A stretch of DNA of 64,000 nt, from assembly GCF_036588685.1 (NCBI RefSeq), contig NC_086381.1:66526001-66590000 (forward strand), read 5' to 3'. This document shows, piece by piece, positions 45,697-63,900 of this stretch (position 1 is the first letter of the stretch; the number at the start of each line of letters is the position of its first letter). Under the pieces are notes generated by a model. The model made no database searches. It had not been told where the DNA came from and worked only from the letters and a program-made list of their open reading frames with translations. The translations under genes were made by a program, and so were the position numbers. This stretch comes from Mytilus trossulus (taxonomy: Eukaryota).

Positions 45697-46398
45697 TCAA
45701 AAACGAACAGTAATACATAAATTTCTCTCGCTAAAATCTAAAACGTTGTTACATACACGAGCGAATCGTACAAGTTGAGATATATAAACACCATAAGATG
45801 GTGACAAGGGAACGTCACCATCTAAAAATGTATAATTAACGATAGGAAAGAAAATCATCTTTTTTATCATATTTTTTTGTATTAAGCCTCCCGTTAATGA
45901 TATAGATTTCAAGATTGAGGAAAGGACAGTGGTCATTGTTAGTATTAGCTTTATTTAAAGTTAGTTCTACAGGATAAATTTCTTTAGTATACATACGGAA
46001 GTCGTTATTATTGAGAGCCAATATATCATCCAAATATCTAAAAGTATTGTTAAATTTTTGTATCAAATCTTGTTTCGATGGGTCTTTGCTAATTTAAGTC
46101 ATAAATTGTAACTCATAACAATACAAAAACAGGTCCGCAATAAGTGGTGCACAGTTATTCCCCATTGGAATTCCAATAACTTGACGATATACGGAATATC
46201 CAAAGCGAACAAAGATGTTATCATGTAAAAATTCAAGCGCATATAAAGTATCAAAGCATGTCCAATTGACATAGTTCTTTTGTTTATTGCTACTAAAAAA
46301 TGACCTAAAGGAGTTTGAACATATGTACTCGCATTCTGACTTTTTAAATGCCCATTTAATTAGAGATGTGAATTTTTTCTTAATAAGAATATGAGGCA
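45697..46398 (-). mobile_element. Penelope-like element reverse transcriptase fragment (interrupted by stop and frameshift)
   Basis: YRQVIGIPMGNNCAPLIADLFLYCYE; FNNTFRYLDDILALNN; IYPVELTLNK; FPIVNYTFLDGDVPLSPSYGVYISQLVRFARVC, spread over three overlapping ORFs. Confidence 0.88.
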
Positions 46399-46760
46399 AA
46401 TAAAGGCAACAGTGGTATACCGCTGTTCAAAACTCATCAATCCATGGACAAAAAACAAAATCGGGATAAGAAACTAAAACCGAGGGAAACGCATTAAATA
46501 TAAGAGGAGAACAACGACACAACACCGAAACGCAACAGCACACAGACACGGACCAAGCAACAGACAAAACACCACGAGAATAACAAATATAACATCAAAA
46601 CCAAATATATGAATTTGGGATAGACAAGTACCGTGCCACGTCTTATCTCAAAAATAAGAGAAAACACAAAAGACTCAACGTTAAAATGCAACACACACAC
46701 AGAAACGAACAATATTATAACAATGGCCATCTTCCTGACTTGGTACAGGACACTTTTAAA
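46399..46760. mobile_element. Dispersed non-autonomous repeat (Helentron-like hairpin end) truncating the RT fragment
   Basis: Starts aataaaggcaacagtggtataccgctgttcaaa (hairpin aacagtgg-tata-ccgctgtt). Shares ttcctgacttggtacagg with the repeat at ~2235-2420, which recurs inverted at ~58150-58335. Confidence 0.55.
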
Positions 46761-48199
46761 GTGGTATATAGGGTAGACATATTAAAACTTTGAACAGATT
46801 CAAAATCACCAATATATGCATGCAATTTATCAAGTACTTCCAACGAGTTTTTGACACTCCAAAAGTAATTAATTCTACTATTTTCAAAGGCCTTATTTGA
46901 CCAATTAATTATCAGGTATTTTATTGTATTGACGATGCGATTTAGATTTCAAAATATTAAATTCAAAATAATTATTACATTGATGGTTTAATTGATTATT
47001 TTTCACCTAGCTTTCAATAACTCAGATCTGTACTTTGTGGTTTTGTTTTGTTTAAGTGGATCGATCTGGTTACTCTTTTTTCAACGGATTTCCATGGTTT
47101 GTTCTTGTGTTGTAAGACCTCGGTCCCAGATTAAGGGGTGTGTAACTGTTTATCATATTTGTTTTCGGTTTATTGTTTGTACTTCAATGAGCTCGTTCGT
47201 TTTTTTATGGTAATTTTAGGCATTTAAATCATTAATCGACTTGCTCAAAAAACTGATTAAAGACAGAACTTACTTCATAAATATTTTTACCCTAGGAGGC
47301 AATAATTAAGCGACTTAACGTATGCATAAGGTATGCTTACGGTTAGCCTCATATTTATTATGCATTATTTATGGGCGATAATTAGATTCATATTGTTATC
47401 AATAAAAACATTCTGGTATTTACAAGACAACAGATTGTGAGATGGCACATTTTATGTTTCTTTTCAATTCTTTATGTATTTCTAATTTTGCCAAACGTCG
47501 TCAGTAAAAAAACATAATCCAGCAAACGAATGTATCTCATTGCAAATGAAAAGTAGGGATACCAGATGTATTGCTTTGTATATTTTAGATAAAGAAATGT
47601 ATCTCCATGCTCCTAATTAGAATAAAATAAGATTGCCTCAAATATTACAATTAGCAGATCGTTACGTGTACATGCAAATCATGAAACGCAATTGCAAAAT
47701 TGTCTAACAAAATATCCGTAGAAAGACATGCAGTTGTTGTGTCGTTCTATAATTAGATGTTGGTAACGGACGAGTGCATTCATTACTTTTATTTTTTCAT
47801 ATGTATTAGTAGACACTCGTTTATTTTCGATATGCATATATTAGATATTGGAATTAACCAAAGAGAGGTGAAAGATACCACCGGAATATTCAAACTCATG
47901 CGATCTGGAAGGGACACCTGTCGGATTAATCGTGTAAGAACAAACCTAATGATAGGTCTAATTCGGTAAAACACATATACGAGTGAAAGAGGACGGAATT
48001 GTGGCTTCAACAATTTGAACAAATCCGTCTTTTTCGGTGAAGGTGTAATACCACCATTGATTTTTCTCTATTATTCTTTGTTAAATTTGCACTTTTCAAA
48101 AAAATATGCTGAATTTATTATTGTTTTAAATACAGAATAATTGGCATGAGTCAAGTTTTATCCTGTCCAATACTACAGAAAATCCTGGTTTTATAGCTT

Positions 48200-48830
48200 C
48201 CATGTAAGCAGCAACCTTCTTTCAAAATGATGTTGATAGGAAATGCAACGCTATATTCAGACTCTGCTGGAAATTTGCGTGAAAGAAATTGAAGGTGCAC
48301 ATTGGGAAGCTTTGTTTAGAAGTTTCCATTTAAAGTCTAGTCCTCAACCGACCCTGATGGCCAAGTTAAACGTACATTAAGACAACATGTCAAGATGTGA
48401 GGCAAACTTTGTATCTTTCGTATCCTTTATTTCAAGTTCAATGGAATAAATGCGTTCAAGATTGTCACCAAACGTTGAATTATTTATTTAGAGAACATAA
48501 TCCATATAGAGAAACGTGAAGTCAAATGATATCGCTCGCCTCTTCTCATTCTTTCAAAAAGTAACTGTCTGAAGTCAACCTAATATCAATAAAGAAATAA
48601 GTCGGCTAGAAGAGGGTCACAATTGGTTTCCATTGGAATGCCGATTATTTGTTAAATAAACCCACTCTCCAAACAAAACAGATATGTTGTCAATCAAAAT
48701 ATAAGTACCTTCACAATGTCAGTCTCAAAAAGTGTTTTGGTTTGATAATAGTGATTTTTTTTACAACGTTTGATTTATTCCACCCTAAGACAACATACTT
48801 GTATCTACTTTCATAATTTTTTTTATGAAA
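48200..48830 (-). mobile_element. Second, older Penelope-like RT remnant of a related family
   Basis: Minus strand reads GIPMETNCDPLLADLF (~48596-48643) and IYSIELEIKDT (~48419-48451); heavily degraded. Confidence 0.7.
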
Positions 48831-50150
48831 CAAAGCAAGACCAAGGTTGTGTTTTTCAATGGGCACTTATATTATTGGGTACATTTGATCTCTCTTATAT
48901 CTATTGATAGGGTCGTTGTCTACCAGTATATAAATAATATTATCACCAAAAAATGTATGACTTTTTTTCAATCAAAAACTTTAAATAACGAAAGTAATGC
49001 ATTATGTAAAAAAAGATGTATTTAGCTCTAACATACTTCATTACTTCGAATACCTTTTTTTTTTCTTTGAAGATCAAATTATATAATTTATATATATTGA
49101 AAGTATTGTTTAAGATCAGAACTATTTTAAATGTAGTCACATTGTAATTTTTGGTTTTTGGTTTTTGTGTTCTTTTGTGTTGTACTGTTTTATGTCAGTA
49201 GTTTGTTTTCACATATTTTGAGTTGTTCTGTCAGTAAAATAGAATGCAATCGCCTTGTAGAAGTTTATTGATTTAATGCTGTGAGAAAAATTGTTTTTAT
49301 TATCTTTCAATTTAGCTAATTATTAGGAAATTGAATACTCATACACAGAGAAAAGATAAAGTGATGTATAAAATAGATTGATAGGAAATAGTTAAGTGGC
49401 AGAACTCAAAGTATGTTAACTTTATATTTGTTGTCATTTGAAAGTTCTTGTGTCAAAAGGATGTTTTATGAAACAGAGTGAAACATATAAATGAAGTTAT
49501 GTTTCCTCAGAATACTTTCACTGTCAAGCGACTGTCTTCATGACACACTTGATGACAGAGAATGGATAAAAAAAGGTAAAGTACAAATGACAATTGAATG
49601 TAAAAATTAAATATTCCCCTACCTACTTTTCTCCGCATGCTTGAAGCTTTAACTTGATATTTGATGTATATTTATCATGACTAATTACACATTAATTTTG
49701 ATTTATGTTTTGCCCGGATGAGCAGAGTTATGGTCATTGGATCTAGAGCATAAACACAAATAATCAGTGTTCTTCCTTTTTTATGTCATGTTTCAAGTAC
49801 AAGATTGGTATATATTGTTATCATGACGAGTTACAGATCAAGTTCAAATTTTGTACCCATGTAATGATTTTGTACAGAGTTACGGTCCCTGGACTTTTAA
49901 AATCACTCAAATAATTAAAAATAAAAATAATGCTTATACTTGTTCTGTATATTTGATATTTGAATTTTTAGATTGTAAAGTGTATCAAGCAATTGAAAAG
50001 ATTGCAAAGGAAAGAACTTTAATGAAGGATATTGGGAAACTGTCTCCTGCAGAAAAGACATCAAGTTTGGAGTCCTACCATAGAGTTGTGTGTTTCTTTG
50101 CACCAAAGTCTGTGCATTTCAAGCATGCAAAAATCGAGGCAAGGTAAGTA

Positions 50151-50556
50151 CCGATTATCAGGTTATCTGCATGTTGATATCGTAAAATATCAGCTGCGAG
50201 ACATAATATGAAGCTTTTTGTCGAGTGTGCGTAGCGAACGAGATCAAAAAGCCTTCATATTTTGTCAAGCAGCTGATATTTTACATTATCAATATGCAGA
50301 TAATCTGATAATCAATTTATCGGGCTATATTTGCGTGTTTAAGAAGTGTTTTCTTTGTTTCACCAGCACACAAAAGATGACTTGATAAGTTCGGGTCAAA
50401 GTTATTAACGTCGGTTCAAACATTATGACGTCGCTGATATGTCCGGGTCAAAGTTATTAAGGCCGGGTCAACGTATTTGACGTCACAAAGACATAATACG
50501 GAATAATATTAAGAGCTGAACAGAGTGATATAGACAGTGGGACGACCGATAATAAT
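50151..50556. mobile_element. Small non-autonomous element with a ~160-bp foldback, just downstream of a transposase splice donor
   Basis: gattatcaggttatctgcatgttgat...tatcagctgc...atatgaagcttttt pairs with aaaaagccttcatat...gcagctgata...atcaatatgcagataatctgataatc (50153-50314). Confidence 0.6.
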
Positions 50557-51429
50557 AAAACTCAATCTTAAAGTACTAGTAATAATCATATTCACTCCAG
50601 ATAATCTTAACTCTAAATATATTTAAAATTGAGTACCCCTAGTGACCTGTATCTGAGCTAGGTGAACAGATATTTGTACAGAAAAGATCTTATTTTTTTT
50701 CAAAGGCCAAGAAATAAATACAATACAGTTATCTTTGTTCTTATGTCACTTATTACCCGTAATTAAATTAAATTCCCAATAATAAATAGGTTGGCTATAA
50801 AAAAAAACATTTATAATGAAAAGGTCTGCAAACATTTTCTTGGGTAATAATATCTAATTGTAAACATGAAGTCATAGTATATTCCCTATGTTAAACATAA
50901 ATAATTTACCTATTTATACTTATCTTATGCCTCTAATAATAGGCATTAATTATGACAAAAAGATTTTGATGTACAAAATGTGACTTTCTTGTTTATTTTT
51001 ATTATAAATTACAAAGTCATGAAAAAGTCAGAAATCAAAATTTCTTCTTTACAAACTGGTAGAACACGGAATCTAACCCTTCATAGTATTTGTCAATGTC
51101 CAATGAAAACTATTGCTATAAAATGTACATGTATGGGAGACATGGTAATCATATATTTTTTTTCTCCAGAATCTACTTGGCAGCAATGCATTTTAATGAA
51201 AATTCTTCAAGACCTCAGGCAGTGACATCAACTGGAACGGCACAATTAAGAGTTTCCTATCCAAAGGCTCGTAAAGGTAAAGGTGTTGCAAAGGAAGTTA
51301 AGGTTAATGCAACGTATGGTAAATATATTTTTAACTTTTTAAAATACATCTATTACAGGCATGATTTTTATACAACTATCAAAAAGTATTTTGTGTTTGT
51401 ATGTATTGGTACCACTTTATTATTATCTG

Positions 51430-52740
51430 GCATCAGGGTTGTCCCAAGACACTTTTTTTCTGGATAATCACTTTAGTTTTAAAAGTGAATGGATCTTTAT
51501 GACATTTAAACACAAGGTTTGAAACCACAAAAGGAAGGTTAGGATTGATTTTGGGGACTATGGTCCCAGCAGGTTTGGAACTAGGTTCCAAAAAGAATAC
51601 TTTTCTTACACTTATAAGTTGCTTATTTCTTTACCAATTTCAAGGGGATTTTATTCCAGATTTCTTGGGTTCTTTCATTTTGGGAATTTGGGCCTGTTTT
51701 AAATTGGTCAAAAAGAGGTCCAAAATTTAATTTTCTTTGATTTCATCAAAAAATGAATTTTTGGGGTTCTTTGTTATGCCAAATTTAACTGATTTTTTGG
51801 AGGGGGAGGGGGTGCAGTTTTCAAATTGGTCTACATAAAGGTTCAAAGGGTCCAAAATGATATTAAGTGTGATTTCAACAAAGATAAATTATATGGGGTT
51901 CTCTAGTTTGCTGAATTAAACCATGTATTTAGATATATGATTTTTGGTCCCTTTTAAAAGTTTCCGGTAAAATGGTCCCAAATTAAACATTTTTTATTTC
52001 ATCAAATTTGTGGTTTTTTGATATGCTGACTTGTAATGTACATGTATATAGAGACTTGTAATTTTGGGTCCCATTTTCAAATTAGTGTACAATAAGGTTC
52101 AAAAAGTCCAAGATGAAGCTTATTGTGATTTCAACAAAATTTAAAATATGGGGTTCTTTGGTTTTCTGAATCTAACGATGTATTTTGATTTTTGGGCCCC
52201 TTTATCAAATTAGTCCCCTTTGAGGTCAAAATGGTCAAAAATTAAACTGTTTTGAATTTAATCTGAAATTAAATTATTGGTTTTTTTTTATATGTCGAAT
52301 CCAAATGAATATTTAGAATTGTAATTTTGGGTCTTGTTTTCAAATTAGTCTGCAAAAGGTTGAGAGAGTTCAAAATTTAACAAATATTGAATTGATAGGG
52401 TTCTTTGGTTTTCGGGCCATGTTATATCAAATTGGTCAACATTGAGGTCAAATGGGTGCAAAAAAATATTTTTTGGAATTCTGGGACATTTTTTTATATT
52501 CTGAATCTAACCCTGTATTTAGAGTTTGGATATTGGACCATAATGGGTAAATTTAAAGTTCAATAATGAATTTGACCATATTCATTCTTGTCAGAAACCT
52601 GTGCTGTGTCAAAAATGTAATCTCAATCTAAATTTAGAGCTGTATCAGGCTTAAATGTTGTGTCCATACCCACCCCAACTGTTCAAAAGTTTCACCTTTG
52701 TGGTCATATCAAGCTGCATCCTGCAGAGCATTTATTTTCA
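51430..52740. repeat. Degenerate ~110-130-bp tandem array (probable HINE-like insertion) in a Kolobok transposase intron
   Basis: Recurring ggggttctttg...ctgaatctaacc.tgtatttaga...ttttgggtcc...tcaaattggtc...aggt.caaa.ggtccaaaatt motifs. Confidence 0.65.
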
Positions 52741-54199
52741 TTAGTTTGCTATTGACTTTGAATTCAATTGTTATTTGATGTTGTGTAATATGTTAATTAT
52801 TTTGTTCAAAGTACATAAATTAAGTGATTAGTTTTCTCTTCTGAATTGTATTTTCTTTGACATCATGGGGCATAGCCGACTAGCTGGTATGGGCCTTGCT
52901 CCTTGTTGAAGGCTTTATTGATCTGAGGTTGCTTATCTCTGTGTCATGTTGGTCTCTTGAGGAGAGTAGTCTCATTTTGCAATCATACCACATCCTCCTT
53001 TTGATATATGTAAAAATTAATTTCATCACTAACTTTTTTCTATGTATTTCTACTTGTTGAAATATAAAAAAAGTCTTGTTTTCTTTCAAGTGCAAATTTG
53101 TTGATATCTGTTCATGAAGAATAATTTGTAGACTTTGTAGATAAACATTTTATTATTTTTACAGGTTATGTTCAAGAACTATTCCAGGATCTGCTGTTCA
53201 GAAGGGAGCGTCTAAAGAGCTACAGTGAAGCAATTGCAGAAAGAAGACGTGATGATAAAGTCCGACCTCTTCCTTTATCACACAGTAAACCTCATCCCCC
53301 CAAGGCAGACATTTTTGATAACCACAAATGAAGATTTAATTTGGAATAAACATTAATTTATTTATTTATCATACATAAAATTGAGAATGGAAATAGGGAA
53401 TGTGTCAGAGAAACAACAATATATATTTCAACTTATTAATATTGAACTGACAAACTTCAAAACTTACTGAGCACAGGGATAAAAATACTTTTGAAAAATT
53501 CATTAAACTATTTCAAAATATAAATTTGTAAAAATTTTCTAAAAATTTAAAAAAACAAACAAGTCTTTAGTCTTAGATGCATGATTTTTTTATTTCTTGT
53601 TAGTGGCATCTGAACTAGCCATCAGATAACTGTGAGTACTCTCAGATCTGTTCATTTTGTCTTTTTGTGTAGGAATGTATAAGTACCTGGCCACGTCCAC
53701 TGGTATTTTTGGCCTATCTGATGAGTTTAGCCTTTTACAACTGATTTTTATAGTTCGTTCTTATGTTGTACTGTTATACCACTGTCCCAGGTTAGGGGAG
53801 GGTTGGGATCCCGCTATCATGTTTAACCCCACCACATTATCTATGTTTGTGCCTGTCCCAAGTCAGGAGCTTGTACAACAGTCGTTTGTTTATGTATTAC
53901 ATATTTGTTTTTCGATCATTTTTTTACATAAATAAGGTCATTAGTTTTCTCGTTTGAATTATTTTACATTGTCTTATCGGGGCCTTTTATATCCGACTAT
54001 GTGGTATGGGCTTTGCTCATTGTTGAAGGCTGTACGGTTACCCATTGTTGTTAATCTTTGTGTCATTTTGGTCTTTTGTGTATAGTTGTCTCATTGGCAA
54101 TAATACCACATTTTCTTTTTTTATAAGTTATATTTGAATTAAATGACAACAGAATAATATAATAATTTTAACAAATTCCTACACAAAGTGTTTATATTT

Positions 54200-57100
54200 T
54201 TATTTTGGATATTTGAACCCACAGTATTCCTGTGATGGAAATGCACCTCTAATGGCGGTAACAACACATGATGGCAAAATCCTTCTGTTTTTCTTTCCCA
54301 GTTTGTGCCAAACACATCTTACAAACCTTCTGTAAGCCAAATATCGATAAGTCCTAAAATGAAACAAGTTTTAATGATAATTATTCCCCCAACTCACTAA
54401 ATTTTTTAATGTCCTAATTAGGGATACTTTGTACTTTTGGTCTGTGCATCTGTCTTGCTTTTGGTAAATTTTCTTGGTCAAGGTAGTTTTTAAGAAATCA
54501 ATCAACTTGAACCTAAGTACACATGTTTTTTATAATTATGATATGATCTTTAGAGTTTAACATTTTGACCACTAAACACATTTTTGTCACTAAACATAGA
54601 AATAGTAGTGCAATAGGGCCATTCATATGTACATGTACTATATATGGACACATTATTGTTAATTATGTAAATTGTATACTTAATCATTTTGGGGGTTTCT
54701 AAACCATGTTTAATCAAGTACTTTGTATATTTTATTACTTGTGAAATTGTTTTTGACAATGTTGTATATATGAAAAAATCAGATTTTGTATAACTGCCAA
54801 TGAAACAACTCCCTAGCAAAAGCCAAGCATTTACAACTTGTACAAATCAGAAATTAAACATGTAGGTTCGGGTACAGCCTTTAATGTAGATCATTGACTT
54901 GCATGCATTGTGATAACAAAGGGACCAGTTATATATATACCCACATTTAAAATACTTCAAACAGGAAAAATCAACAGCTCGATTAATCTTTTTATATGAT
55001 GTACCAAAATCAGAAATAAAATGAAATATAACAACAAGCAAAAAACCCATAAATTTCAATATCTTGACTTGGGACAGGTACATTTGTACCTACAGGAAGC
55101 TTACTGTATAAACATGATAAAGGGCCAGAATTGATATTATTTACATGGTCTAAATATTGCTATAAAACGTCAATATAAATATATTGTCTCATTCTGTTAA
55201 TTGAGCAGATCTAGAGAACCAACAGCCCCTTGCTGACTTGCCTTTGAAAATATAATCCATGTATTTGGTCTTGTTGATTTTTGTTAATTAATCATCTTAA
55301 GAAAAATTCAAAGAATCATGAATTTGATTTTGTAAATGCCAAACCTTATTCATTATTTTGTGACTTTTAGTTGTATTTGAAAATATCTTACTCATGAATC
55401 ATGGCATTGTCCTCTAATGGTCCATTATCCTGAACATATTCATAATATGTTGTCTCTAAAACGTACTGGTTCAGACAGTTTACTTGAAATCCTTCATGCT
55501 CTGTAATACATTTCAAGTCAGCTTCCTCTACTTTACTGTCCACAACATTAGTATTCCTGCAACATTTGCACTCTCTCCTTGTTGGCATTGCTGAACATCT
55601 GCTACATGAACACCTATGAGAACCAAATAAAACAATTATGTTAATTGCTGTTCTGGAAAAAGGTAAACAAAGGCAAAATAAGGGTACAAGAACCTGATTA
55701 AGTATTTGTCAGGGACTCAGGGTAAAAAAAGAGCCTGGTATCCAACTGGCCTCAATGACTTATTAGCTACAGGGAGACAAATATTACCAACAAGAAGAAA
55801 ACATTAACCAAAAGGAAGTATGTTAACAATACAAAAAGAAATTTATTGATAAAATATAATCCTTATAAATTATAATGGGTCCATATTTAGAAAAGAAATA
55901 AAGAATGAAAAAAAAAGAGGGGCTGGGTCCCCTCTTTTCTATGAATAAAATGGTTTGCTTATTTAGGGAATCACTGTTCAAAACATGACCGAAGCAGGTC
56001 CAACCTTATGAAAATTTCTGGATCCGCCACTGATGACGACACTAGCTCCTTTTTTTAATCCATTCACTTGTGTTTTCACTATGATCATGACCACCGTTCA
56101 TAAAAGTACAGCTGATATAGGTACTAGCCATGCAAGCAGGGATGATCGATTGACACAGTAATGAAAATCTTTTGTTTTGTTTTTATGAACATTCAGTGTA
56201 CATACATGTTCATGTACACAACATCTGAAATTCCTGCTCCAAAATAATTTTCTCATCGATTTTTTCCAATTTATAAGACAACTTTTATATTCTAATAAGA
56301 ACAATTACCTTGTAAAATAAATGCGCAAATAGTTGTGAATGTCAACACCAACTTTCAATTTTGATACAATTGTCGAGACATTTATGTGTTTTACCTGACA
56401 GAAAGCTATTACAGGGCAAAATTCATAATTAACAATAATACTGCCTATCTGTGATTACTCATTCCTTGAAACTTTTTGGGTAATAATATAAACCAGCATT
56501 AAAATTTTGTTATTGTTTACGGTGTACATCAACTTAACTATGCACTGTACAGAAGGGTTTATGTGGTCAGCTAAACACCGTACACAACGCTTCTTTTCAG
56601 AATAAAATATTGTTAAAAACATGCATGAAAGATTTAAATGCCAATTATTGATACAACTATACTCATTACACATGCTGAGTGGCCTTCTATCAGAAAAAGA
56701 GTTGCAATGAATATAGAGTTATATTGGATGAGACGAGTGCCAACTTCTTTGACAAGTATTTGCACATGTTTTTAGTAAACATTCTTGTTTTGGGAAAATT
56801 ATGAGCCATCTCGCCTGCTTATAATTAAGTTATGCGTGTGTGAGCAAGATTATATATGTTTGTATGTCATGTGCATGCTTTTACAATGGAAATTGTAAAG
56901 TTATGATGAATTCTTAATAGTATGAACACCCATGGGACAAGGTACATGAATGTTATTTTAAAAGGCCGTACCGTGACCTATAATATTGTTAATGTTTGTG
57001 TCATTTTGGTCTTTTGTGGATAGTTGTCTCATTGGCAATCATACCACATCTTCTTTTTTATATTATTTCCGCCTACAAATGTACATGTACATCACTTTAC

Positions 57101-57633
57101 AGATCTATATGTGTACTAATACAAGCTGGTCTGTAAGCCTTATTTGCGTTCTTGTAAAAAAAAATCCAAAAGAAACTAAGTTAGTAAAAAACTTTATTTT
57201 GATTTGGCATATTGACAGACATACTATAGCATAAGTTAAAATGACTTTTTAGCCGCATTTGTTTACGAAGAGAAAACAACAACAATACCCCCTTCCCCCC
57301 CACCCCCCCACCCCACCCCCCCCCCCCCCCCCCCGACTCCGTTTTAACTGTTTAACATTGCAGTACGCAATTTTTTTTAATTATTTTCAGAACTAAATAA
57401 AAGGAAAGGCTGATTTACCATAAGCTAATGACATCTACTTCTGTTTCTAATCCCGGCAATGGCATATCGTCGTCCGATGCATCCAACTTGCTATCACTGT
57501 CAGTGTCACTTTCCGACTCGGAAATAACTCTTCCCGGGAGAACTGTTGGTTCATACTGATACGGATGCACATACGAACCTTTAATTCCTAATTCTCGTAA
57601 CTCGTCAACATCACTTGCTCCGGAACTAGACAT
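54200..57633 (-). CDS. KolX / P2X7 C-terminal ballast-like Zn-binding protein (exons 57633-57419, 55613-55392, 54353-54200; 196 aa)
   Basis: 215+222+154=591 nt open frame with phase-2 GT-AG junctions: MSSSGASD...VHPYQYEP...acidic tract...SL-W-CSCSRCSAMPTRRECKCC...KCITEHEGFQVNCLNQYVLE...IH-E-TYRYLAYRRFVRCVWHKLGKKNRRILPSCVVTAIRGAFPSQEYCGFKYPK*. The motifs WCxCxxC...ExxCC, CIT, RxxAYR, LPSC, IRxxFP and YxGFK match the P2X7 intracellular ballast. Confidence 0.88.
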
Positions 57634-60600
57634 ACTTAACAATTTTTTTTATATCAGTTGTATACTACGCATGGTGATCAGCTGTAAACAAAGCTATGGC
57701 ACGTATGACGAAGACAAAAGATTCAATTCAAGGGAAGTAAGTCATGAACACAACCGATACTGACAGAACTTTCGGAGGGGGTTTTATGGATATAAATACG
57801 GATTTTGACAATAATTCTTATTTTTTTCGAATAAAACAAATAAGAAGTTTATAGCTAATAAATAAAAACAAAAATTAAAAATCGTTTCCTGTGATCTTTA
57901 AAATACCTTTATTGATGCCTGCATTTAACAAAGTTACAGGTCCGAATAAGATAAATTCGTTGATTACGTATGTGTATGCGCGTTACATGTACATGCATGC
58001 GCAGTAATGACAAGGAACGCAACGATGCCTCAAAGGAGTCAGAAATCAAACCAACAATGGACTTTTTCCACCCTATTTTTACCTACTATGTCTGTTTCTT
58101 TTGTTCACACATCGTTGTCAATATGATGGAATTTGAAGTGACTGTCATACAAGTGAGAGGTTTAGCTATCTATAAAACCAGGTTTAATCCGCCATTTTCT
58201 ACATAAGAAAGACAGGAATATGGCAGTCGTTATCCATTCGTTTGATGTGTTTGAGCTTTTGATTTTGCCTTTTGATTAGGGAATTTCCGTTTTGAATTTT
58301 CCTCGGAGTTCGATATTTTTGTTATTTTACTTTTCATCCAAATTTACAAATAAGACCCTAGAAGTCATTAGTGACAGTTGTAGATTTTAGGTGAATATCC
58401 TTTTTTTTTTATCAAATGTGACGAATCGTCCTATCTAGTTTTATGGTTGACTCTTTCAGCAAGGAAAACATTAATCATAGATAACAGGTTTGTACGTCAG
58501 ACCCACGTTTCGTCTACAAAAGACTCATCATTGACACTCGAAAAAACAAATTTAAAATTGTCAAATAAAACACGAAGTAAAAGTACATTAAAGACCTAGA
58601 ATTTCGAAAGGTTTTGTCATATACAGATAAGATAACGTATTCCTTGAGAGTAAGCACTTGCTGGTCACTTGAATACTTAAATTTTCTCTTTAATCAGATA
58701 AACGTTTTTTTTACATGAATGTCTGAAGAATAAATATTGGTATCCTCCTACAAAAAAATGTCCAATCAGATCAAAACACATATCATATGTCCATGCTTGC
58801 AAGGATCTGCAAACGATCCGTTCTACTTTCTGTTTAAAAAAAAAACTACTTTCGAAGTTATCTGATTTTTTTAGGATTAATATCAATTCAATAATTTGAT
58901 AGCTGAAATGTCTGTGGCTGTTGTGGTAATTACTAAAACACATATTAAAACGAAGTGAAAGATCATTGTAAGTAAAGCTTGGACACAATATAACACTGTA
59001 TTTTAATCTGATTGAATATGGAATTACAGCACAATACACGCGCGATTTTTCTAAAGCCCGACGTATATGATATTGTATTTTGTACTGGTGCCACATTATA
59101 TTGATCATGTGTTATTTCAAAAACAATATATTTTAAATCATTACATTCTATTACTATGCCTCTGAATAATAAACTTCCTTTGCACTATATTCAACCTGTA
59201 ATTCAATGCATTACTACTTCCCTACCTACTTTTCTCAAATTATCTATTTGTTGTCAAGCCACATGGTTATACACTTTATACATAATACTCATTATTACTT
59301 TGGAAACCGTAGAATCCAGTCTGAGATTGAGAACCTGGTTATATGCAATTTCTGAACAATATTAAAAAATCAAATGGATTTATTTGTCTGGGGTCTAATA
59401 AAAATAATGTGACAATGACGATAACAACTATTAAAAAAAAAGATTTAAAAAAAGATTTATTAACAAATTGAAATGCGTGTACGACGATGAAAGTTTTTAA
59501 CGACCTTGACAGCCCTTGGTCGGTCGGTAATATAAATACATGGAAAAAAAGAGTCTATTATAGTCTACCATACGGTATGTGTTTTTCTCATTAGTAAAGG
59601 CCATACGGTTGTCTATAACTGCTTAAAACCACTTCATTTGAACTTTGGTGGACAGTTTTCTCCTTTTTTTTATATTTATTCATATCGCCAATGTTACATA
59701 TTCTATCTGTCAAAGGGAAATAACTTAAACAATGTTTTTGCTTTGGTTTTTAAAATGTGGTCCATATCTTGGAGAAATGTAGGCTTGAAAGCGCTAACAT
59801 TGCAGTTTTGTATATAATTAATGTATCCACGAGTCATAGCTCTATTACAATAGATGATAGGCATTGATTTTGGAACTTTTCCGAACCATTGCTGATATAA
59901 ACTTTTAATATAAATCTCATAGATTTCTAGAAAGAATTTAACGTGTTTTAACATAATTGTTTAACACTAGTCATTTTGGGGGACTTTTTAGCTTACTGTT
60001 CGGTCTGTGCCAAGGCCGCGTTTTTTTGTTTGTTTTTTTTTACTTATATGGAGAGTTGTTCCATTGGCACTCAGACCACATCTCCTTATTTTTATCAATT
60101 GGTAGGTTCATGAAATAACGTCCACATCGGTATATCGAAGGCTGGTAGGGATTCTCTGTGTTCCTTTTAAGAAGCCTGCGAATTTATTATATATCTCCAA
60201 GTAGATATGATTTACCAGAGCTTGCATATTCTATCATGATTTTTTAATAGAAGGTTAAGACTTATGTTTGCCCAGTTTTTGCCCTATTCATAATGATAAA
60301 CAACCTGAGTGAACTCAATTTTTAATGGAAACATGTGCATTACTTTGGAATGTGGTGTGGCGTAACGTTTGCTTTGTACGAAAGTCTTCCCCTCGAATTA
60401 CTACTAACGTTGCATAAACACATATATAAATCTGAAATTTTGAAAATTCTGAAATCTTTTTATTTCGCGTTTAGAACATTGTTATTGGTCGAAAGTTTTA
60501 ATTCCAAGCTACCGTTTGTCTCCTCCGGAACTTATACCATGTACACGATGACCTTATTGTTCTGTTTATTGCCCTTCTTGTCGAAGAGCATGTCCATACC

Positions 60601-60959
60601 ATGGTCTCGCCTCATTTAGGTCATTGCGACTGGGACAATGCCTTCTGGATTTCGAGTACGTTTTGGTGGAAACTTGATAAACCCATGTCTAGCAGTGAAG
60701 GAATGCAGTTCAGTGGTTGTCCTGAGGTCAGGCTACGGTGCTTAAAACTTCGATTTATTTTCTCTTACGTCGGCGTCCATTTCTTAGTTTTGCCAATACT
60801 AAAGCTATTAACATCTGTACAAGCATAATATTAAATTTGATATTTTTCAATCGTGTATTTTGTTGTAAGATTTATTTAAAAACAGATTGAATATCATACT
60901 AGTTACCAGGCAAAAAAAAATTGTACGCCAGACTGGCATGTCTTCTACAAATGACTCAC

Positions 60960-63900
60960 CAGTGTCGCTCGAATAAAAATGTAAAAAGGGTTAAATAAAG
61001 TACGAATTACTAAAGCTTTGCGGATCCAAAAATTTGAAAGGTTTTGCCGAATATAGCTAAGGTGTCATATTCTTAGGATACAAAATACTTACTATTTGAC
61101 AAATTCAAAGTTTTAAATCGATTGCTTTATATTTACACCATATCAATGATAATATATTAAAAATGTGTAGGCATTTGGTATTTGTTGTTGAAATTATTGC
61201 ATTTTAAACTTGATATGTACTTTTTCATTAGATATTTTCCAATCTATGTTGTTTTTGTAGGGCTTTTTTAACGAGGTGAGTGTTTAATTTTTCATAGTTT
61301 TCTGATGAATCTAACGTTGGTTTCTTTTATAGAAGATTTAAAGAAGAATACTTTACATTAGAAAGAAAGTAATAAAAACGAAATTTATCATTATTTGACA
61401 ATACTTAACAGTGCTGAATGTGCATGATTCATCACTAGTTCTTTTAAACTACATGAAATAAAAAAAAATCGAAATTACACATCAATTTAAATTCCCTTTC
61501 ATATTGTTATTATTGAACTATTTTTGTAATTATAGGACAAAACTGTTAGTTAATGATCCTACAGACATGTACATCAGATACTAACCGTTTCAATTTTTTT
61601 TTTAAAAGAACATCAATCAATTTTAAGAAATAATTGTACTTTTAAATAAAAAAGAAAGAAGTTAGCCTTCAAAAAAGGAATTATTGGTGAATCTTTCAAT
61701 ACGCTCTTGTTAAGAATTGTAGCATTGCGTAATCAGAAAATAGTTTCTACAATTTAAAACTCGACTTCAATAAAGTGTGTTATGCTCGGTGCTTTGTTAT
61801 TAGAAAGGACACTATACTAACTGACCTGGATTCATATTTTCAGTATTGATAAATATGATTACGAATTCGCCGTTTTAGAATATAATTCATTCTGGAATAT
61901 ATTTTCAAAATCGTAAAACAAAACGCTGAGATTGGCTTACAGTGTCACAAGCAATTGAAATTCAACCAATGACGTGACGTCGTTTTGTATTTTGGGGAAT
62001 GAACAATGAAATTACCACGAATGCATTCAAATCTGAAACGGCAAATTGTTGATAATGAACAATGAGATTACCACGAATGCATTCAAATCTGTTACGGCAA
62101 ATTGTTGATGATACGTCAAAGAGATAGTAAACCAACTGCATAAAGAATCAAATCAATATTTAAGGTCTTTGAAAATAAACTGGAGTTCTATGGAGTAAAC
62201 CGGGCTCTGAATTTCATCGTGTCTAAGCTAATTGTGATTAAGTAAAAAAAACAATTGCTGTTGATTCATATTTGTTTGTGGATACTATTTTTCGTAGAAT
62301 GAAGATTTCTTGAATATTTTATTTCGTGGGTTTTCCAAAATCGCCCTTATAATCCTGTTGAGAATGTATCAAAATTTGTAATTGACATATACCTACGAAA
62401 TGCACGAACATTGCTTCCTTACGAATAATATTCAAGTATTAAGCATCTGTCAATATGTAATATTTGTGACTGAAATGCATTAAAAAAACATGGATCAACT
62501 TTTCACAAGATTCCTGATTTGCAACAGTCACGTGCAATACTATCATTTGGAATTATTTTGTATTAATTGAAGATTTGTATATCTAATTAGTTTGATGTCG
62601 GTGTATGGCTGTAAATATTCGGTATTCTGAATATATTTCATTTACTTATATCATGTTGGTTATTCATCTAGTATGTAAACCCAAACAACTATAATACTGT
62701 TGCTTTGGTTATTCCTAATTGTTGTAGATGCTTTGCTTTCTTTATAATCATGAAATAAGGATGCGTTGTTTTCTTTATAAACTTCTAATGGACATCTTAT
62801 TGATCTAGTTTTTAAATTATAAGCTTGGCTTTGGTAGTTTCTTGGGATTTGTAATATAACACAAATGGTAAATGAGACATTAAAATTATGTTATGCTCAT
62901 GAATAATTTGAATGTACAATCTGTTTTTCTTCAAAGATGTTGTTAATACCAAGATGTTTTGTCTTTTTGTCTGTGTCCATTAACAACATTAACAGACAGA
63001 TTATCAATATCAGATTAATGAAAATCACAGAGTGGAATAAATATTAGTGTTGGTTTTTGAGTGTTTCTGATGAAGATTAAACAGAAATCCACTAAGGAAT
63101 AAAACAATTTGTAGCGCGGAAAAGAGAAAACCTTCCATTGTATTAACCATTTTAATTCTACTATGAAAAAAATGTAACAATATTTAACATATAAAAACAA
63201 AAATGCTGATCAAAACAATTTCCAATGTTGTCACAATAAGAGGATATTTCTAAAATCATGTATTGTTTGTTTTCGAAAATTATAAATAGAAATATTCGGT
63301 CAATCAAAAATTCTTTTTTCGCATAAAAATGCGCCTTTATCATGCAACCATAGGTCATGCCATTTATAACCATCAAACTTTTTCATACCAATCACTTCAG
63401 TCTGACCTGGGTTACCACTTGAATCAGGTTGTGTTGAATGCCAATTGAAGTGAGTAATGATTGATCCATCACTGTATCGCCAATGCTCTTCTGCGATTAG
63501 ATGTGATCCTTGGAACAGTATCCAACTAGTAACATCAAAATGATCTACAAATATTGTACAAAACAATAAGATTGATTTTCCAAAATATCTCGGTTTAATT
63601 AAACAAAAGTATTTGTTTTTTTATTTGAAATTTGAAACAAGGATTTTTGGTATGATTTTTAATGGTCTTATAAAGAACACACGACAAAATGTAAATCATT
63701 ACATGTCATCAAACGTTAAGCAAAACTCGTCCTGTATAGATAAGAAGGAACAGTAGATAAACCAGGTTTAAATCGCATACATTTTTTTGTTTTGCATTAA
63801 GACAAAATCAAGGTACAATTAAAACTTCAAGAAATGGTACTTTGCACTCAAAAAGGAACCGAAAGTCTTAGAGTTTTATACTTTGCATTTTCATACAAAA

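Follow-up and report, generated by a model that had tools for sequence, protein, structure and literature searches.

An open P2X7 ballast-like KolX gene within a young, one-ended Kolobok remnant of Mytilus trossulus

The window analysed here, a stretch of 64,000 nucleotides from Mytilus trossulus, contains a KolX gene that is real and correctly identified and that belongs to an ordinary young Kol0 remnant, namely a Kolobok cut-and-paste copy that has lost its left two-thirds, of which 8.4 kb (positions 49534-57897) and one end remain. Very probably, this copy inserted at a TTAA in the spacer between genes of a tandem array, a deletion then removed its left end together with most of its transposase gene, and what is left, at about 1% divergence, is likely decaying neutrally. 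Because it has one terminus only, the copy would now be immobile, a passenger presumably under no selection, and it is most likely youth alone that keeps its KolX gene open. The features of the remnant and of its flanks are listed in Table 1.

Table 1. Features of the Kolobok remnant and its host flanks (window positions)
Feature	Position	Strand	Remarks
Left host flank	48903..49533	.	76-84% identical to the paralogous spacer directly left of C9:66501926
Transposase remnant, broken first piece LHDTLDDREWIKK	49534..49575	+	Breakpoint 49533/49534; begins at P0044 residue 609
Transposase exon with SLESYH	49972..50143	+	Spliced in an X15 contig
High-copy, non-autonomous 408-bp insert	50145..50552	.	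At start of transposase intron
Transposase exon (IYLAAMHFNEN...VNATY)	51170..51318	+	Sequence match and reads
Last transposase exon	53165..53331	+	Stop codon TGA at 53329-53331; Ser in intact copies
KolX exon 3 (154 nt with TAA)	54200..54353	-	RYLAYR, LPSC (C175), IRGAFP, GFKYP, stop
KolX exon 2 (222 nt)	55392..55613	-	Cys cluster C73, C75, C78, C89, C90, C107
KolX exon 1 (215 nt)	57419..57633	-	Acidic N-terminus, low pLDDT
KolX subterminal and upstream region	57634..57877	-	95.9% identical to the C5 copy over 57634-57901
Terminal inverted repeat AGATCACAGGAA	57878..57897	-	Same motif at both ends of C5:23438631-23442773
TTAA target-site copy, KolX-side end	57898..57901	.	Identity to the C5 sister ends exactly here
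Right host flank, tandem-array spacer	57902..61833	.	74-92% identical to C9:66501918-66505919

The KolX gene consists of three minus-strand exons with GT-AG at both junctions, both in phase 2, and has an open product of 196 aa; splicing the exons confirmed the three-exon structure, the phase-2 junctions, the uninterrupted frame and all of the motifs quoted in a preliminary description of this DNA. The product (P0008) is identical to RefSeq XP_063398534.1, 'P2X purinoceptor 7-like [Mytilus trossulus]', which is the kind of pipeline label that had been anticipated there for a protein with neither transmembrane segments nor ectodomain: Pfam PF20478 (P2RX7_C), at E 2.6e-13, is the only domain. The gene is one more case in which a RefSeq model of this name in bivalves can be a transposon KolX gene. 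Its assignment as KolX with a ballast fold was upheld by both profile and structure comparison. Matches within the PDB are to P2X7 chains only (residues 476-594, E 3e-4), and P2X7 occupies all top 14 Foldseek matches to the AlphaFold model, the mean pLDDT of which is 65 (below 50 for residues 1-63). A VIA comparison with the P2X7 ballast (PDB 8tr5, 6u9v and 9e3m) gave Z 9.2-10.6 and an rmsd of 3.4-4.9 over 116-127 residues.

All seven zinc-coordinating cysteines of P2X7 are kept in the window KolX, where C73, C75, C78, C89, C90, C107 and C175 align to P2X7 C477, C479, C482, C498, C499, C506 and C572 (P2X7 residue numbers being counted from this alignment), and zinc binding is accordingly a prediction from sequence. 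Binding of GDP or GTP is uncertain: within the GDP site (R546, H547, R574, R578, K583) two of five residues are kept (R149 and R181), whereas Y stands for H547, V for R574 and S for K583; equivalents of R546, Y550 and R578 are present. In the accessible text of PMC7016195, which names the five GDP-contact residues, retention of R546 and R578 alone is the invertebrate pattern. Guanine-nucleotide binding, which had been attributed to this fold, thus stands as a property shown for vertebrate P2X7 rather than for KolX. Other differences from P2X7 are the Trp of the WRF motif (W556 by count), which is Cys in the window copy, and the lack, in 196 aa, of the channel, the two transmembrane helices and the ATP-binding ectodomain of the receptor. 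A counterpart in form is zebrafish nanor, likewise a short ballast protein that stands alone, as do the ZCD proteins (Rump et al. 2020, PMC7016195, accessible text); nanor is proposed to be domesticated, whereas the window KolX is still surrounded by transposon sequence, and intact elements contain relatives 97-98% identical to it. The link between KolX and the ballast was published in 2022 by Kojima and Bao (PMC9587614), the accessible text of which proposes both P2X7 and nanor as KolX captures. Regarding KolX function, the term is used only in PMC9587614 within the literature searched, most subscription journals and Repbase Reports being outside its scope.

Within an intact element, KolX likely folds around a two-zinc cluster through its seven conserved cysteines and likely assists the transposase or regulates it, a role suggested by its steady association with these elements and by analogy to PIF/Harbinger. 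Other two-gene cut-and-paste elements, such as PIF/Harbinger, have accessory proteins.

The Kol0 lineage is defined, in the accessible text of PMC9587614, by a TTAA target site, 5'-RR termini and KolX, and the Kolobok transposase by a DDD/E core with a C/DxxH signature. A TTAA target-site copy is found at 57898-57901 and at both ends of the C5 sister copy; short inverted repeats of the form 5'-RR...YY-3' (AGATCACAGGAA) at the window end and at both C5 ends; a DDD/E transposase with C/DxxH at the family level, in P0044, with a THAP domain in the C5 copy; and a ballast-fold KolX as the second gene. The same combination of DDD/E transposase, ballast-fold KolX, TTAA and 5'-RR terminus (AG) is described for the Kol0 type family, Kolobok-1_XT (PMC9587614, accessible text); unlike the lineage, the window copy has a single end, no THAP domain and neither catalytic Asp residue, so that neither the full catalytic triad nor the pair of termini of an autonomous element is present. 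No named Repbase family could be assigned to it: three family motif strings gave no matches in four PMC9587614 supplements, a search limited by aligned or wrapped sequences and by one incomplete file.

At the surviving KolX-side end, the presence of which had been claimed beforehand, the window reads TTAA followed by AGATCACAGGAA at 57901-57886; TTAA precedes this terminus in 8 genomic places, and the terminal repeat corresponds to the other end of the family over 12 bp perfectly and about 20 bp imperfectly. The other boundary is supplied by an empty paralogous site, C9:66501926, which matches the host DNA left of the element as far as 49533 and that right of it starting at about 57898; hence the remnant spans 49534-57897, and the deletion has one endpoint within the left TTAA and the other in a transposase exon. 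It reduced this TTAA to one base (the empty site reads TCAA) and took the left terminus, the THAP domain and both catalytic Asp residues. The earlier suggestion of a recent break is supported. No left terminus was found in the window or in the adjoining 20 kb to its left and right, nor a family left end anywhere on C9, and a displaced left half of the element nearby was therefore rejected. A RefSeq protein, XP_063400258.1 (P0041, 190 aa; 49491-53331), begins in the host flank (MKLCFLRILSLSSD) and runs in frame into the transposase remnant; it is a chimeric prediction spanning the deletion breakpoint.

The four plus-strand pieces of the remnant correspond to residues 609-784 of P0044, the 790-aa family transposase of M. 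galloprovincialis, in line with the earlier statement that the N-terminal and most of the catalytic parts are missing. P0044 carries GGDARC, VTDRH, FDVWH and SLESYH, of which the window retains SLESYH only; this motif is taken here to hold the last catalytic Glu, as part of an assumed D/D/E assignment of the transposase motifs. Both P0044 and P0046 end in SRFNLE, six residues following the Ser (785) that is replaced by TGA, and runs X15 and X22 have a different letter at 53330, within this TGA. Pfam returned no name for the transposase. The tail-to-tail layout of KolX and transposase, already noted in the preliminary description, recurs at all six of the other loci that keep a transposase core, though the phrase itself does not occur in the accessible text of PMC9587614.

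Nested insertions within introns had likewise been taken as signs of breakage, and of these one, the 408-bp insert, proved to be separate and young; the C5 sister shares the repeat of KolX intron 1, and the intergenic DNA is common to other copies, making these features of the family rather than of decay. The insert has 97-99% identical copies genome-wide (40 scored of 2004 candidates, with ends compared in 7), which occur on many chromosomes; it contains a 67-bp internal inverted repeat, has no terminal inverted repeats and sits at the intron donor, leaving a GTAAGT donor. It may be Helentron-associated (HINE-like).

The C5 sister copy, C5:23438631-23442773 (4.1 kb), is 92% identical to the window copy and carries this motif with TTAA at each end; it arose by internal deletion and retains KolX exons 1-2 and a THAP domain. 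The window KolX nests within the family clade with support of 100/100. In sister mussels, the transposase P0044 (XP_076085025.1) and the KolX P0004 (XP_076085027.1) have accessions that are two apart, and two M. edulis transposase-KolX pairs are likewise near-adjacent, which points to intact two-gene elements. This intact, transcribed family (790-aa transposase plus 200-aa KolX), a by-product of the analysis, is a candidate system for exploring both the role of KolX in transposition and the P2X7 ballast before its capture; the isolated P2X7 ballast is amenable to study as a soluble trimer, according to the accessible text of PMC9574498. Within the M. trossulus assembly, there are 71 genomic matches to KolX exon 2 and 54 to exon 3, and no complete KolX of this family was found there besides that in the window, the other copies having missing exons, a TGA at W161 or a frameshift. 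Neither an intact autonomous copy nor an intact same-family transposase was found among the 77 scored of 152 candidates, which yielded only stop-bearing fragments (C5:52.79 Mb, 81-83%).

Other Kolobok families were encountered along the way. Eight copies of one family have near-identical scores, open 631-aa frames and an adjacent KolX (C6:20683748, C7:9165834, C7:49946483, C14:41048890, C10:15743635 and, within 30 kb of each other, C9:63272296, 63282332 and 63301721); this family was likely recently active. At locus L081 (C2:87107057-87110825) lies a compact Kolobok with tail-to-tail intronless frames of 201 codons (KolX) and 611 codons (transposase), a convenient candidate for functional tests.

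Whether the window KolX has been retained by the host or is decaying was explored by counting its private changes relative to the family KolX P0004, a sequence that M. edulis and M. galloprovincialis share without difference. From it, the window KolX differs by P13R, S21Y and D68V in exon 1, by W159C in exon 3 and by deletion of a four-residue repeat, which corresponds to the absence from exon 1 of a 12-nt repeat unit carried by most family copies and is found also in P0002 and P0009. When third copies serve as outgroups, 6 changes among 664 non-coding sites fall on the window branch, or 0.9% (a rate based on just six changes, as all counts here are small); over 468 non-synonymous sites this predicts 4.2 missense changes, and 4 are seen, window-branch synonymous changes being polarised only in part. 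In simulations at 0.9% divergence, and with assumed indel ratios, the frame and splice sites survive by chance with probability 0.23-0.66. Exon 3 has a pN/pS of 0.16-0.30 against more distant copies, which reflects selection on the active family and not on the window copy.

Two controls agree with the neutral reading. The C5 sister copy (23.44 Mb) lacks exon 3 and is unable to make a full KolX, yet its exons 1-2 are open. In a sister Kol0 family (full element C11:58197219-58207803), all four other copies examined, which sit on C1, C3, C5 and C10, lack the transposase core through four different internal deletions, and three of the four keep KolX intact (ATG, splice sites and frame); these copies were found by a KolX search, and the frequency of KolX-bearing derivatives is to that extent biased.

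The preliminary description had offered, as an alternative to a recent break, retention of the gene inside an immune lectin array. Host selection for the copy as a new gene of its own next to the lectin-like genes, an incipient domestication resembling nanor, appears quite improbable. The frame, the splice sites, the upstream region and all seven zinc cysteines are indeed intact in what is the sole complete family KolX found in the assembly, and P2X7 and nanor are two published precedents (PMC9587614, accessible text). Moreover, the transposase remnant has 9 missense changes relative to P0046 (10 relative to P0044) plus a stop in 177 codons, compared with 4 changes in 196 codons for KolX (p 0.058 in a one-sided binomial test and 0.10 in a two-sided Fisher test); at the 2.4% rate of the remnant, four or fewer KolX changes have p about 0.02 and intact survival a probability of 0.02-0.34, so that KolX would be under-diverged if 2.4% were the true local rate. 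Yet the count of changes is what neutral drift at the rate of the copy's own non-coding DNA would give; for purifying selection on the window copy, then, there is 4 versus 4.2 on the one hand and p about 0.06 against the remnant on the other, at low power. Moreover, W159C strikes a conserved aromatic column (of 29 homologues, 24 have W and 5 have F), in agreement with the earlier interpretation of the FVRC motif as early decay, and intact KolX genes recur in unrelated deleted copies. A third, very recent KolX recruitment after P2X7 and nanor, with the transposase remnant decaying about 2.5 times faster, is accordingly doubtful in the same high degree; were retention true, domestication would have been caught at about 1% divergence.

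The read data, which come from 6 of 24 listed runs and for which the status of X15 as RNA is a guess, count weakly against expression of the window KolX copy, as the runs are possibly from other species or from non-carriers. A 371-nt contig of X15 contains the exon 1-exon 2 junction (57419/55613), one of the two junctions proposed for checking; the other, exon 2-exon 3 (55392/54353), is absent among the best-supported matches (40 per table). Another X15 contig joins the last three transposase exons, indicating that the family is spliced as predicted. The X15 contigs, X16 and a few X23 reads have non-window letters at 57431, 57572, 55607, 54314 and 54233, those of other copies, and no window-private alleles occur among the best-supported RNA matches, which argues against retention. 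In X1 DNA, the window letter is a minority at 57572, 55607 and 54233, so that some 'private' changes may be older. X1 also covers the element at a summed depth of 42-189 (unique bins) and has zero depth on the right flank at 57968-58070, which counts against retention only in company, the hole by itself being proof of nothing; in a test for the insertion junction in other animals, a single X3 flank contig (depth 2.7) stops at the TTAA. A further X15 contig, unspliced, spans 54092-55244 and covers KolX exon 3 and intron 2 at a depth (26.7) similar to that of the spliced transposase contig, which extends to 53655 (23.8); transcription of the transposase may continue into KolX in antisense (53164-55244), the contigs showing no strand.

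Less probable still is that the copy, though unselected by the host, is expressed and supplies KolX in trans to autonomous members of the family, or damps them. In favor of this are its intact terminus and upstream region, the spliced transcripts of both KolX and transposase known from the family, and the frequency of KolX-only derivatives (subject to the bias of having been found through KolX), but the same best-supported matches lack a window-allele transcript, and the 77 scored of 152 candidates include no intact same-family transposase. A young neutral remnant remains the preferred reading.

The insertion lies in array spacer, with minus-strand copies on either side of a tandem gene that matches PAN weakly (PAN_1, with a score below the cut-off) and contains lectin-like exons, for which, in isolation, Pfam gave no name; 'C-type lectin' is presumably apt, given a reading of their QPD and WHD motifs. 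Fusion of KolX to these neighbors in the manner of P2X7 was rejected: the two lectin-domain exons checked are in phase 1 and KolX in phase 2, the upstream gene stops at 63300, and there is no in-frame splice. Also rejected, as unproven, was MKMKSVVG... as the signal exon of the lectin gene, the PAN exon having its own Met and hydrophobic start. Over C9:66466001-66600000 the array comprises at least five tandem units (15-19 kb, 92-98% identical) of this PAN plus lectin-like gene, together with an inverted paralogue, about 50% identical, near C9:66483000-66489000, and window positions 45709-61833 duplicate the spacer at its left edge. Degraded reverse-transcriptase-like fragments on the minus strand at 45697-46426 and 48240-48651 (IPMG..CAPLIADLFL, FRYLDD) are taken here to be Penelope-like. 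Elsewhere, at C14:25825471-25825571, a miniature element of about 100 bp bears both termini of the window copy's family.
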